A DNA stretch of 64,000 nucleotides from assembly GCF_024298765.1 (NCBI RefSeq), contig NZ_CP101210.1; one strand, 5' to 3'. The stretch comes from Escherichia coli (GTDB taxonomy: Bacteria > Pseudomonadota > Gammaproteobacteria > Enterobacterales > Enterobacteriaceae). Under the pieces are notes generated by a model. That model saw only the letters and a list, made by a program, of their open reading frames with translations. It was not told the origin of the DNA and did not search any database. Positions 38,929 through 63,634 of the stretch are shown here, piece after piece. The position numbers were made by a program, and so were the translations under genes. How positions within the stretch are numbered: the first letter of the stretch is position 1; every line of letters begins with the position of its first letter.

Positions 38929-40470
<1,542 letters not shown>

Positions 40471-40800
40471 AAAAGTTTGATGCTCAAAGAATTAAACTTC
40501 GTAATGAATTACGTGTTCACTCTTGAGACTTGGTATTCATTTTTCGTCTTGCGACGTTAAGAATCCGTATCTTCGAGTGCCCACACAGATTGTCTGATAA
40601 ATTGTTAAAGAGCAGTGCCGCTTCGCTTTTTCTCAGCGGCGCGGGGTGTGCATGATACACTTTCCCGCTACAGAGTCAAGCATTTATTTTTGCTTTCTCT
40701 GCCGGAATTCTCAGGAGAACCCCGCTGACCCGGCGGCGTGTTTGCCGTTGTTCCGTGTCAGTGGTGGCGCATTATAGGGAGTTATTCCGGCCTGACAAGA
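40471..40800 (-). promoter_or_regulatory. rrn leader plus tandem P2 and P1 promoters
   Basis: Minus strand contains CTCCCTATAATGCGCCACCACTG (P1) and GCTTGACTCTGTAGCGGG...(P2 -35); leader conserved with 29..177. Confidence 0.7.
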
Positions 40801-40843: not shown

Positions 40844-41701
40844 TCAGTCTAAAACTGCCAGTTTTTCGAGCGTTTCGAAGCCGTAACGCTGTAAAACGGG
40901 CAATAATTGTTCAGCTTCTGGCGTCATTGCCATACAAAAGGCAATATTCGCATCGGCAGATTTTGCATCCGGGGCTTCATGTTCTAACAGCCAGGCCGTT
41001 CGGCGAGCAATCGCTGCGCCAGAATCCACCAGCCGGGTTCCCTCTGGCAGCACCTGTAACAGTTCTTCTTGTAGTAGAGGGAAATGGGTACACCCCAGTA
41101 CAACGGTATCTGGCGGCTCTTTCATTCTTAACCACGGACGCAAGATACGTTTTAGCGCATCCAGAGAAACATCTTCGCCATGCAGCTTCGCTTCAGCCAA
41201 CTCGACCATCTCTGCCGAGCCCAGCATTTCTATCTGGCATTCATTAGCGAAACGCGCGATCAGCTCATGAGTATAAGAACGTTTAACAGTTCCGCGGGTT
41301 GCCAGTAATCCGACAATGCCATTTGCCGTCAGACGTGCAGCAGGTTTAATCGCCGGCACGACACCAACAACCGGGAAGTCGAACTTTTCGCGTAATGCAG
41401 GAAGTGAAACGGTACTGGCGGTGTTGCAAGCGACCACAGCCAGCGCAAGGGGATAACGTTCTTGCACTGCGGTGACAATTGCCACCACTCGCTCAACAAT
41501 AAACTCTTCGCTTTTTTCGCCATACGGGAAAGCGACGTTATCGAAAGCATAAATGTAATGGAGATCCGGTAAGAGATGCCGGATCTCGTCATAGACCGAC
41601 AACCCACCGACGCCGGAGTCAAACACCAGCACGGTGGGACGTGGTTCAGAAGGTGTAGCTGCCAGACAAGGTGTATTCCCGTCCTGCAGTTTGGTAGCCA
41701 T
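40844..41701 (-). CDS. murI: Glutamate racemase
   Basis: 285 aa from [40 protein letters not shown]; 5' end overlaps btuB 3' end. Confidence 0.95.
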
Positions 41702-43490
41702 AGACTGTCTCATAATCTTTGTCGAACAGGTTGGCTATTTTACCACGAACTGTCAGATGAGAGGTGACCGGATACGCAACCGCAAGATCCCACAAGCTCA
41801 CACCGCCCATTTTGACTGACTTATAGGGCCAGGATGAGTAATCCGAATCGTATCGCGATCCCAGATATTGATAAGTTACACCCCAGTCAAAATCGAACAC
41901 TTGCCAGTCGAGCTGATACTTTACTTGCTGTTTAGGACGACGTTCTAACGGTTTGTCAGTTAAGGCATTTCTGGCATCCGTATAATCGTAGCTAACGGTA
42001 TGCACCAGCGGTCCAGTCTCGAAGTTTGCTGTAGATTCAATACCCTTAATATGCACCTTTGCGTCGTTATAATATCTTTCGCAGTTTTGGGTACAATTAA
42101 TCATATCACTGATATCATTACGGTATCCTGAAATTCGCCAGTTCACTCCTGCTGTTAAGCCTTCAAACGCCCCTTCCCACTGTTTGCTTTTTTCTGGATC
42201 GAGATTCGGATTACCTTTGTAACCATATAACTGACCGAGATTTGGCGCTTTAAATGCAGTTCCATAGGAAGCGATAAAGCGATAGCCTTCAATAAACTCC
42301 CATCCCACACTGGATTGCCATGTTGTGTGGCGATCAAATTGCGAGTTGTCGTCATTACGCACCGCGCCTTCTAACGTAAAATCGCCAACTTTTTGTAATC
42401 CAGTCAGATAAATCCCCGTGTTACGCTGATCGTAACCTTTTGGCAAATATCCAGTTCCAGGAGTAGTGGATTGTTTTTGCCAGTCGATACCAGCTCCAAC
42501 ATCACCGTGACCGACTGTGACGCTATTTGTCCACTGGAGATTGTATTGTTTCATCTCATCCAGGTTAGCTGATGCGTCATAGCGTCCATAATGTGGATCG
42601 TAGTTGTAATCTTTACTATGGCTATAACTGGAAACAAGTTGAGATTGCAGTGTTTCGCCAGCGTAGCGAAGACCCGCATCCCAGCTTTGACTATAAAGTT
42701 TTCGTGTATCAATCAGCGGAGAACCAGGAGAGTACCAGGCGTCATATTTAGTTCGGTTATCATAGCCGTAGCCACGAACAAATCCGCTCCACGTATCAGA
42801 GAAGTTATGTTCAAGTTTGCCGTAGAGTGTTTTACTTAAAAAACCGTCTCTGTCTGACTGTGGCTGCATCCCAGTGTTGCCATAGGCAACGACATCAAAT
42901 CCCCTGGTATAGGCATAATCACCAAGAAGTGTTACTTGAGTATTTTCACCAATTTGTTGCTGAGTGGAAATATCGTAATTTTGATAACTATTACTTCCCC
43001 ATCCGGCTGAAATTTCAGTGCCAGTATTCTCACGGGAGGTAATAATATTTATCACACCGCCAATGGCATCTGAGCCATAAATCGCTGAACGTGGCCCACG
43101 GATATATTCGATACGCTGCACCAAAGCGATCGGAAACTGGCTCAGGTCAGCCGATCCGCTAACACCTGCTAAATTCAGACGTACACCATCAATTAAAACC
43201 AGTGCATGGTTAGAGTTCGTGCCTCGAATAAAAATAGTTGAGAGCTGACCTTCTCCTCCATTTTGTGCAATTGCCACACCAGGCAAACGGCGGAGAACAT
43301 CATTTACAGAGGAAACTTGCCATCGTTCAATATCCTCACGTGTCACGACAGTGACAGGAGCAAGCACGGCACTTAATGGTTCCTGAAAACGGTTAGCAGT
43401 AACAACGAGAGTATCCGGGCTGGTATCCTGTGCCCAAGCAGAAAAAGCTGTGACAGAACACGCCGTCAGCAGCGAAGCTTTTTTAATCAT
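41646..43490 (-). CDS. btuB: TonB-dependent vitamin B12 outer membrane transporter
   Basis: 614 aa from [35 protein letters not shown]; TonB box DTLVVTA; C-terminal F. Confidence 0.97.
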
Positions 43491-43731
43491 TGTAAAGCAT
43501 CCACAATAGAAGAAGGATGCCGCAGGTTTCATCAATATTACGCGATGATGAGAACCAGATGCGACGTTAGCCGGCAGGTCTTCGGGCTTGGAGGGGTATC
43601 TAAGATACTAAGAGATGATGACTTCCCACCGGATGGCAGTGTCCGCATAACGCAATCATCGCACCTTTCCTTACCGCTGCGCGTCAGCTCCAGATTCGCA
43701 CTGGATTCCCTATTAACTCACAGGACCGGCA
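43491..43731 (-). promoter_or_regulatory. Cobalamin (AdoCbl) riboswitch / btuB leader
   Basis: Minus strand matches the btuB leader GCCGGTCCTGTGAGTTAATAGGGAATCCAGTGCGAATCTGGAGCTGACGCGCAGCGGTAAGGAAAGGTGCGATGATTGCG...CTGCCGGC... Confidence 0.85.
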
Positions 43732-43858
43732 AGTGGATGCTACAGGTTGTAACAAGTTACTGTCCAGACGTAGCTCACAAATAGGAATTCATCAAGATCT
43801 GGACATCTGATGAGCAATCCCTACAATCGCCGCGTACTTTAATTTTTCAGGATACATC

Positions 43859-62755: not shown

Positions 62756-63634
62756 TTAACCTCCCACGGTAACCTGAAATCCGGCCCGTTCTGCCATTTC
62801 ACGCATCGTTGCCACATCGGCTGACGACGGCGCAGCAACCTCTTTCATCGACCATGTTTTCCCCAGCAGGCGGTATTTCGGCTCGCCGTACTGATGAAAC
62901 GGTAACAGATGGATCTGCCTGATATTCAGCGGGATCAGCACGTCCAGCGCCTGCTGCATATTCTCCCGGCTGAGCGTGAAACCAGGGATCAGCGGTAAAC
63001 GCGGGATCACGTTGACACCCTCACTCACCAGCAAACGCAGATTCTCCAGCACGCGTTGCAGGTTCATCTTCACCACATCCCGCGCCTGAGCCGCATCCAT
63101 AATTTTTAAATCGAACAACACTTCATCGCACAATTTCGCCAGCGGTAACAGCTTGCTGGCTGGCGCGTCTCCGGCAGTTTCGATGGCGCATGACACACCC
63201 CATAGCCGCAGTCGCTGTAAAAAACGGGTCGCAAACTCCGCCTGCATTAACACTTCGCCGCCAGAAAGCGTGACGCCACCGCCGGACGTGCGAAAGAAAA
63301 TGTCATCTTTCATCACTTCCCGTTCCAGAGCGTCAAGACTGATATCGCGGCCAATCCGTTCAAATGCCCCGGAGGGGCATTCATCCGCATCACGCAAACA
63401 TTTCGCGCAGTGCAGACATTTCGCCTCTCTGCGCACCGTCTGGATTTTGCCGGAGATCGACTCCGGATTAGCACACCATGGGCAAAGATGCGGACAGCCT
63501 TTAAAAAAGACCACCGTACGAATGCCCTCGCCGTCATTCAGTGAATAACGCTGAATGTTGAAAATGCGCGCCACATCATCGCGGCGCGTTTCCACAACGT
63601 TACAGCTGATGCGCTGTCCGGCGGATGATGTCAT
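62756..63634 (-). CDS. pflC: Glycyl-radical enzyme activating protein (PFL2 activase)
   Basis: 292 aa from MTSSAGQRISCNVVETRRDD; radical-SAM CPHLCPWC plus extra Cys cluster. Confidence 0.93.
   Translation of the reverse strand: MTSSAGQRISCNVVETRRDDVARIFNIQRYSLNDGEGIRTVVFFKGCPHLCPWCANPESISGKIQTVRREAKCLHCAKCLRDADECPSGAFERIGRDISLDALEREVMKDDIFFRTSGGGVTLSGGEVLMQAEFATRFLQRLRLWGVSCAIETAGDAPASKLLPLAKLCDEVLFDLKIMDAAQARDVVKMNLQRVLENLRLLVSEGVNVIPRLPLIPGFTLSRENMQQALDVLIPLNIRQIHLLPFHQYGEPKYRLLGKTWSMKEVAAPSSADVATMREMAERAGFQVTVGG

Follow-up and report, generated by a model that had tools for sequence, protein, structure and literature searches.

Conserved btuB–murI overlap of Escherichia coli and candidate murI expression signals at the 3' end of btuB

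Introduction

The vitamin B12 receptor gene btuB and the glutamate racemase gene murI of Escherichia coli have been described in print as 'well-characterized overlapping ORFs ... which share 56 bp'. The overlap with the essential murI is the reason why the Keio collection contains no btuB mutant, and it has misled transposon screens, in which murI was scored as a phage-resistance hit (TraDIS preprint, 10.1101/2025.12.01.691526). A study in the Journal of Bacteriology handles btuB–murI as one operon and reports promoter and ribosome-binding-site mutations that raise the 'btuB-murI' transcript about 300-fold (PMC11841063). The btuB riboswitch represses translation initiation and not the promoter; btuB mRNA falls secondarily, through elements of the open reading frame, with a Rho termination score of 0.9 and no Rho termination signal (PMC5499598). 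E. coli is routinely grown with cobalamin (PMC11841063, PMC5499598).

Two further types of described arrangement are close to this one. Translationally coupled pairs of the ATGA/TAATG type share with btuB–murI same-strand neighbours, overlapping frames and a weak downstream Shine–Dalgarno sequence, and overlaps of 1–17 nt occur in the same region at thiE/F, thiF/S, thiG/H, murB/birA and fabR/yijD; they differ from btuB–murI in that the murI start lies 56 nt before the btuB stop and in that cells are viable without btuB translation. In the second type, signals of an essential gene lie within a dispensable upstream ORF, as with the rne promoter inside yceQ and the lptC promoters inside kdsC; full deletion of such an upstream ORF looks lethal, whereas insertions are tolerated (Goodall et al., 2018). 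Here, we compare a btuB–murI locus with these systems and examine what the sequence of the btuB 3' end suggests about the expression of murI.

Sequence data and analysis

The window is a 64,000-nucleotide stretch of E. coli DNA, read on one strand (NCBI RefSeq assembly GCF_024298765.1, contig NZ_CP101210.1). It is matched at 100% over 3.1 kb by the chromosome of E. coli strain 104, whose PGAP annotation agrees with the gene boundaries used here. Loci from 80 Enterobacteriaceae species were retrieved with MurI as the query and, together with the window, gave a set of 81 sequences. Synonymous constraint was expressed as normalised synonymous codon entropy in a codon alignment of 79 btuB genes. 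The coordinates of all features are collected in Table 1.

Table 1. Features of the btuB–murI locus in window coordinates
Feature	Coordinates	Strand	Description and basis
Promoter-like site, probable btuB promoter	43737..43766	minus	TGGACA, 18-nt spacer, TAGCAT; consensus scan
Cobalamin riboswitch aptamer, btuB leader	43556..43745	minus	Rfam RF00174, 87.8 bits, E = 2.6e-20; RefSeq-annotated
btuB CDS	43490..41646	minus	Vitamin B12 receptor, TonB-dependent, 614 aa; PGAP, ORF list, sequence
btuB codons 577-596, murI-free	41702..41761	minus	60 nt, extreme synonymous-site conservation; putative murI expression signals
Candidate extended -10 sigma-70 element	41745..41737	minus	TGgTAAAAT; putative function
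Predicted murI transcription start	41729..41732	minus	5-8 nt past the -10 element, from geometry alone; leader about 30 nt
Upstream in-frame ATG	41711..41713	minus	MRQSMATK...; not conserved, probably not used
Weak Shine-Dalgarno-like GAGA	41708..41711	minus	7 nt before ATG; columns -10 to -7 invariant
murI start codon ATG	41699..41701	minus	Conserved
Out-of-frame btuB/murI overlap	41646..41701	minus	56 nt exactly
btuB stop codon TGA	41648..41646	minus	
murI CDS	41701..40844	minus	Glutamate racemase, 285 aa, MATKLQDG...; PGAP, ORF list, sequence
16S rRNA gene	40470..38929		Followed by the remainder of the rrn operon

Results and discussion

Overall arrangement of the locus

The product of the upstream gene is assigned to BtuB by the NCBIfam equivalog NF007926 (1078 bits; cut-off 836) and by TIGR01779 (874 bits; cut-off 600), and that of the downstream gene to MurI by NF002034 (515.6 bits; cut-off 408), with an alignment that starts at residue 24, and by a further match to TIGR00067. 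The overlap holds the last 18 sense codons and the stop codon of btuB and the first 18.7 codons of murI, which is read in the +1 frame relative to btuB, the A of its ATG being position 2 of btuB codon 597 (TAT). BtuB, MurI, a same-strand overlap of 56 nt and the riboswitch with its synteny are all present, and the locus is on these four counts a member of the E. coli btuB–murI overlapping pair. The promoter-like site upstream of btuB is probably the btuB promoter already known, whose transcript would have a leader of about 240 nt. An earlier note on this DNA had reported that the two frames share 56 bp and that murI starts inside the 3' end of btuB; the former is borne out by the ORF list, the sequence and the PGAP annotation, and the latter by the sequence, the annotation and the conservation of the ATG described below.

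In K-12 MG1655, btuB (b3966; 4163639–4165483) and murI (b3967; 4165428–4166285) likewise overlap by 56 nt, and the frames, the upstream cobalamin riboswitch and the gene order trmA–btuB–murI–rrn operon are the same as in the window. The two junctions differ by one SNP, at 41757, and of 5426 complete E. coli genomes, 5425 match the 116-nt junction at 95% identity or better. The overlap is an already known arrangement of E. coli and its relatives, as the earlier note had also recognized: that of K-12 is identical and has been published as 'well-characterized'. It is a textbook arrangement and the reason why there is no clean btuB deletion.

The window differs from K-12 in the body of btuB only, which is a mosaic allele. 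Identity to K-12 is approximately 100% from the leader to about 43400, falls to 65–82% (with one 60-nt bin at 92%; about 75% overall) in the tract from 43390 to 41814 and returns to approximately 100% from 41813 through murI. Between the 3' breakpoint of the mosaic and the murI ATG there are 113 nt, which places the breakpoint a short way upstream of the conserved block described below. No btuB gene of the 80 sampled species or of the metagenome loci exceeds 75% identity to the divergent tract, and the 3.1-kb region is matched at 95% or more by only 463 of 5425 complete E. coli genomes.

Dual coding in the overlap

The length of the overlap is unchanged at 56 nt in 80 of the 81 Enterobacteriaceae species loci, and none of the 81 (the 80 species loci and the window) lacks the ATG at 41701, although these sequences are related and do not represent independent observations. 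The order trmA–btuB–murI and the 56-nt overlap are seen again where MurI is 67% identical (P0121; loci L083 and L084). A metagenome scan anchored on KDYET...FDSGVGG returned 75 distinct junctions, every one with a 56-nt overlap, the junction pattern sitting 17 nt downstream of the candidate -10 motif and sampling only relatives that keep this neighbourhood.

The murI reading frame extends upstream as far as an in-frame ATG at 41713, from which the overlap would measure 68 nt. This codon is ACG in 79 of the 81 loci, the cause being a synonymous TAT/TAC polymorphism of btuB: among the distinct junctions, 137 have TAC as the Tyr codon at this site and 20 have TAT. The A and T of the ATG at 41701 come from the neighbouring Tyr codon. 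All 157 distinct junctions share the 56-nt overlap and have TAT at this codon, even though BtuB would be unchanged by TAC, and such a lack of variation at a site that is silent in btuB is direct evidence that selection acts on the murI ATG itself. Conservation identifies the ATG at 41701 as the functional murI start.

Silent variation is strongly reduced in both frames of the overlap. The synonymous entropy of the overlapped btuB codons is 0.07, compared with a btuB background of 0.78 (sd 0.18), and that of the overlapped murI codons is 0.04, compared with 0.72 for murI outside the overlap. Since the btuB silent sites are almost frozen there, a second constraint is needed inside the overlap. 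The variation that is left is found mostly where a murI second position coincides with a btuB third position (16 of 18 such columns vary), and the overlap encodes 38 distinct BtuB tails versus 56 distinct MurI N-termini. In these alignments BtuB is the dominant frame of the overlap and the MurI N-terminus is the more tolerant partner.

The overlapped MurI residues belong to an N-terminal extension. The family profiles begin at residue 24, leaving residues 1–23 outside, and among the 150 cluster representatives listed, the majority have alignments that start at MurI residue ∼20–24. PDB entry 2JFN is near-identical to the window MurI over the full 285 aa; other MurI structures align from residue ∼20–26. 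In the three non-symbiont distant loci that were inspected, MurI begins 4–12 residues before FDSGVGG. No btuB gene lies upstream of murI in any distant locus long enough to show the neighbouring genes, and several representatives with 45–55% identity either have no btuB neighbour or are on contigs too short to show neighbours. Enterobacteriaceae filled the results of a first protein search, which contained no intermediate taxa. Reduced-genome symbionts that have lost btuB retain an N-terminal extension of similar length; a btuB 3' remnant was sought upstream of murI in these btuB-less genomes, which are too AT-rich and diverged to tell.

Could the overlap then be without coding function for murI, with MurI beginning downstream of btuB, for example at a GTG at +69 (Val24)? 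Such a start would agree with the point at which family profiles and other MurI structures begin, with the greater variability of the MurI residues relative to the BtuB residues in the overlap and with the tolerance of transposon insertions inside it (10.1101/2025.12.01.691526). However, the tolerated insertions are strongly biased in orientation, and the mini-Tn5 drives expression in one orientation (Goodall et al.). The GTG codons downstream of btuB are missing in several junctions, and inspection found no Shine–Dalgarno-like sequence upstream of them. The T of the ATG never varies although btuB would tolerate a synonymous change there, the near-freezing of btuB-synonymous sites in the overlap (0.07 versus 0.78) calls for a second constraint, and the btuB-less reduced-genome relatives keep an extension of similar length. 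We consider a downstream start, which the earlier note had named as the observation that would overturn its account, to be highly improbable.

With the start at 41701, the locus resembles a case of overprinting in several respects. The overlapped part of MurI lies outside the conserved family core, distant MurI proteins have neither the extension nor a btuB neighbour, and the variation is mainly silent in BtuB and amino-acid-changing in MurI, an asymmetry expected if the older frame dominates. Both marks of an overprinted N-terminal extension, namely a position outside the core with absence in distant homologues and an asymmetric constraint, are found here. The locus departs from a simple case of overprinting in that the extension persists in symbionts without btuB, and the comparison draws on few loci outside the Enterobacteriaceae. 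In this lineage MurI carries an N-terminal extension of about 20 residues, and its first 18.7 codons are read in the +1 frame from the DNA of the last 18 BtuB codons.

Constraint upstream of the murI start

Synonymous sites are also constrained in the part of btuB that precedes the murI ATG. Codons 577–596 have a synonymous entropy of 0.22 against the background of 0.78 (Mann–Whitney p = 2e-11), and the lowest 18-codon run elsewhere in btuB has an entropy of 0.67. The frozen columns form two blocks, from -49 to -36 (GTTCGTGGTAAAAT) and from -19 to -4 (AAAGATTACGAGACAG), with looser silent sites between them. The sequence comparison makes some extra function of this region, upstream of the murI ATG, well supported. 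An RNA fold was rejected as the cause of the constraint. Segments of 171 and 90 nt spanning the start fold with no greater stability than their shuffled counterparts (z = +0.42 and -0.12, respectively) and show no exceptional structure, and the predicted fold can draw no support from covariation, since it would join invariant columns to the variable columns -35 and -32.

The upstream block includes a candidate extended -10 element, TGGTAAAAT, in which TG stands one base upstream of a TATAAT-like hexamer that agrees at five of six positions. The motif TGGTA(A/G)AAT is present in 157 of 157 distinct junctions, and it is conserved beyond coding need: its Gly codon is always GGT, the preceding Arg codon is CGT in 156 of 157 junctions and Lys, where present, has AAA as its only codon (119/119). 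In the 38 junctions with Arg in place of Lys, the rare AGA is used without exception, which keeps the hexamer as TAGAAT (TAnAAT); Arg is thus reached solely through AGA. By an approximate position weight matrix (PWM), in 69 of 81 loci (here the 80 species loci and K-12) the candidate ranks first to third among the promoter-like sites within 1.9 kb upstream. No recognisable -35 element was found for it by PWM scan. A consensus -35/-10 promoter was sought inside btuB without success, the scan giving only ATGCCA-16-TATTAT at 43069..43042, about 1.3 kb upstream, and the better-scoring PWM sites in btuB fall in non-conserved sequence. A check for an internal murI promoter, which the earlier note had proposed, has yielded a sequence candidate for the -10 element but not for the -35 element.

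A bare match to the motif carries no weight, since TGNTARAAT occurs in the window at chance frequency (three found versus 3.6 expected). The other two matches are inside murB and rplL, and the idea that all such motifs in the window are promoters was dropped. An antisense promoter on the plus strand (CATAAT, ∼41710) was likewise rejected: it depends on the TAT/TAC polymorphism and reads CGTAAT in most species.

Downstream of the candidate -10 element, the predicted leader would contain the second of the two frozen blocks, and the GAGA sequence before the murI ATG would form a duplex of -2.7 kcal/mol with the anti-Shine–Dalgarno sequence, ranking 34th of the 35 CDS in the region. So weak a Shine–Dalgarno sequence fits coupling and low autonomous expression equally well.

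A putative promoter of its own, embedded in btuB, is the best reading of the sequence for murI. On this reading the pair is comparable to yceQ/rne and kdsC/lptC, btuB being missing from the Keio collection because of murI, and differs from them in that we infer the proposed promoter from conservation alone. A literature search on the murI promoter and the MurI N-terminus returned nothing relevant, and the candidate may be previously undescribed.

The block could instead act in translation or regulation only, as a standby site, an S1-binding or low-structure leader or a regulator site, with transcription coming from the btuB promoter, from weaker and non-conserved promoters farther up in btuB, or from both. 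The constraint is indeed also strong at -19 to -4, around GAGA, little structure is predicted for the A-rich segment, other promoter-like sites in single genomes score similarly (for instance -151 and -299 for K-12, and -373 for the window) and the -10 motif is no rarer than chance. Against this, the upstream promoter-like sites are in non-conserved sequence and have been replaced in the mosaic allele, and a viable isolate (20KM2222, below) keeps just 140–148 nt of native sequence upstream of murI. Two frozen blocks with looser sites between them also fit a -10 element, a discriminator or start region and a ribosome-binding site. We regard a purely translational or regulatory role as rather unlikely.

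Dependence of murI on btuB expression

In typical termination–reinitiation pairs the stop and start codons are 1–4 nt apart. The murI start is 56 nt upstream of the btuB stop, a spacing outside this range. No terminator-like site was found between btuB and murI, so that co-transcription of the two genes is possible.

Several disruptions of btuB are compatible with life. Cells survive the lambda-Red replacement of the initial ∼1000 bp of btuB together with the btuB ATG, and for transposon insertions a strong orientation bias (10:1) is reported only within the overlap (10.1101/2025.12.01.691526); the mini-Tn5 of Goodall et al., cited by the same preprint, drives transcription and translation in one orientation only. 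Among viable natural isolates, strain 405 carries an IS1 in btuB, opposite to murI and ∼902 nt upstream of its ATG, WP5-S17-ESBL-10 carries an ISEcp1-blaCTX-M-14 unit opposite to murI at btuB nucleotide ∼1245, and 20KM2222 carries an IS1B oriented as murI, 140–148 nt upstream of the ATG. Read-through transcription may come from the kanamycin cassette, from the transposons and from the IS1 that is oriented as murI, and each of these lines of evidence is supportive of independence and not decisive.

These observations bear on a reading in which the btuB promoter is the sole source of murI transcripts and murI is translated mainly by ribosomes arriving from btuB, or because such ribosomes open up the murI start region, so that B12 would lower MurI. 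The missing terminator, the very weak murI Shine–Dalgarno sequence, the published treatment of the pair as one operon with its strongly raised joint transcript (PMC11841063) and the distance of 56 nt, fixed in relatives, are all in its favour. That distance, however, is forced by dual coding anyway, and it separates stop and start too far for typical reinitiation. The strain without the btuB ATG and the isolates with IS1 or ISEcp1 units opposite to murI are viable, and the synonymous constraint reaches -49, which is further than a ribosome-binding site needs. Finally, if MurI needed btuB translation, B12 would be toxic; yet the riboswitch blocks btuB translation and growth with cobalamin is routine (PMC5499598, PMC11841063). 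We give this operon-and-coupling reading a low probability, and obligatory translational coupling and riboswitch dependence of murI are unlikely.

The earlier note had gone further on these points than the evidence now allows. Its proposal that murI is co-transcribed from the btuB promoter holds as a possibility, there being no terminator between the genes, but the dependence of murI on a riboswitch-controlled transcript is not supported. Its expectation that riboswitch repression would affect murI is at odds with a riboswitch that blocks translation initiation and not the promoter and with the lack of a Rho signal, and a dependence on the translational coupling that it suggested is not supported, in view of the 56-nt spacing and of the viability of the ∼1000-bp deletion and the opposite-orientation insertions.

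The reading that we prefer combines co-transcription with independence. The two genes may be co-transcribed, and murI is most likely independent of the btuB promoter, of the riboswitch and of btuB translation. The final ∼50 nt of btuB ahead of the ATG would double as murI expression signals, comprising the extended -10 promoter, a short unstructured leader and the weak Shine–Dalgarno sequence; we infer these embedded signals from the conservation of synonymous sites together with the viability of btuB disruptions. Enough MurI would then remain when B12 represses btuB translation or when phages or colicins select for the loss of btuB. A known overlap with the murI start at 41701 and a murI made independent by signals embedded in btuB is, in our judgement, the probable state of the locus. 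The wider proposal is more tentative and in our view a little less likely to hold than to fail: across the 80 Enterobacteriaceae species loci, the one locus with a 67%-identical MurI and the 75 distinct metagenome junctions sampled, the last ∼110 nt of btuB may perform triple duty, encoding the C-terminal strand of BtuB, providing an autonomous murI promoter and ribosome-binding site and encoding the MurI extension, in a conserved and insulating design.

Biological implications

In practice it matters whether B12 regulation and the integrity of btuB hold the essential murI hostage, and the comparative evidence suggests that they probably do not. The block upstream of the murI ATG would be an instance of regulatory signals that constrain codon choice inside a gene, to the point of forcing the rare codons ATA and AGA. 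The 9-nt element and the ∼50-nt block should be kept when btuB is recoded, deleted or engineered, which is relevant to phage-receptor knockouts, to genome recoding and to containment strains based on D-glutamate auxotrophy. If the triple-duty proposal is true, the 3' end of btuB would be undeletable and the 3' boundary of btuB recombination tracts would be fixed. The design would insulate an essential cell-wall enzyme from repression by the B12 riboswitch, and also from the frequent inactivation and allelic replacement of btuB under phage and colicin pressure.

Start region of murI

Upstream of the conserved murI start lies a second in-frame ATG (see table), and initiation at this codon would give a protein with the N-terminus MRQSMATK... 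and an overlap with btuB of 68 nt. The ATG is found in the window and in K-12, and the corresponding triplet is ACG in 79 of the 81 loci compared (the 80 Enterobacteriaceae species loci and the window). It was therefore rejected as a conserved murI start and is regarded as a silent polymorphism of btuB (TAT/TAC). In species that encode the btuB isoleucine by ATC or ATT and not by ATA (loci L097, L095, L121 and others), the murI frame is open, without a stop, as far back as a GTG at position -45 relative to the murI ATG. Some MurI proteins (P0023, P0096 and P0100) are annotated with 293 residues, compared with 283-285, which is probably start-codon annotation noise and not a longer protein.

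btuB is absent from reduced, symbiont-like genomes (the AT-rich loci L087, L088 and L089, and L085/L086), in which murI is located directly 3' of argH (with a gap of 23 or 254 nt) or of metF. The N-terminal extension of MurI that precedes (I/L)(L/F)DSG(V/I)GG is retained in these genomes, with a similar length.

In the annotated part of the region, pflC/pflD is the second-longest same-strand overlap after btuB/murI; the remaining ones (thiE/F, thiF/S, thiG/H, murB/birA and fabR/yijD) span 1-17 nt.

Elements within the coding regions

Synonymous variation (normalised synonymous codon entropy) is lowered to 0.40 at btuB codons 9-21, compared with a btuB background of 0.78 in the codon alignment of 79 genes, and two overlapping terminator-like sites are located in the same 5' part of the gene. 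Both features fit the regulatory elements within the btuB reading frame that are reported to reduce mRNA levels with AdoCbl (PMC5499598). In murI, codons 20-49 show values of 0.3-0.5 for approximately 90 nt past the end of the overlap, with a return to ∼0.8 only near codon 50; this could reflect either a constraint on the 5' end of the mRNA or a further element.

At the other end of murI, two strong promoter-like sites lie just past the gene and upstream of the 16S gene, and they fit rrn P1 and P2. The Fis sites of rrnB P1 have been noted in a preprint to be located within the murI coding region, so that the 3' end of murI is likewise dual-use.

Features of the btuB-murI region and a neighbouring overlap (window coordinates)
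Feature	Position	Strand	Remarks
Promoter-like site pair	40771..40798 and 40652..40679	-	11/12 and 10/12 matches
murI codons 20-49	~41555..41645		low synonymous variation
Second in-frame ATG	41711..41713	-	12 nt upstream of murI start
Divergent btuB tract	41814..43390	-	1.58 kb
btuB codons 9-21	~43428..43466		low synonymous variation
Two overlapping hairpin-plus-T-run sites	43474..43451		inside 5' end of btuB CDS
pflC/pflD overlap	63600..63634		35 nt, same strand

Natural variation of btuB

The btuB gene of the window is a mosaic allele. The divergent tract displays ∼75% identity to K-12 and is flanked by segments of ∼100% identity, comprising the riboswitch and the first ∼100 nt of the coding sequence on the 5' side and the last 113 nt of btuB together with murI on the 3' side. 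Compared with the btuB genes of 80 Enterobacteriaceae species, the tract shows no more than 75% identity. A match of 95% or more to the btuB-murI region of the window is present in just 463 out of 5425 complete genomes of E. coli. The BtuB equivalog score is still reached despite the divergence.

In the natural isolates E. coli 405 (L216), WP5-S17-ESBL-10 (L217) and 20KM2222 (L218), btuB is interrupted by an insertion, either of IS1 or of an ISEcp1-blaCTX-M-14-IS903 unit, and one of the IS1 copies is located just 140-148 nt 5' of the murI start codon. These loci show that btuB is lost among clinical and animal isolates, and the disrupted isolates are useful natural experiments for murI expression.
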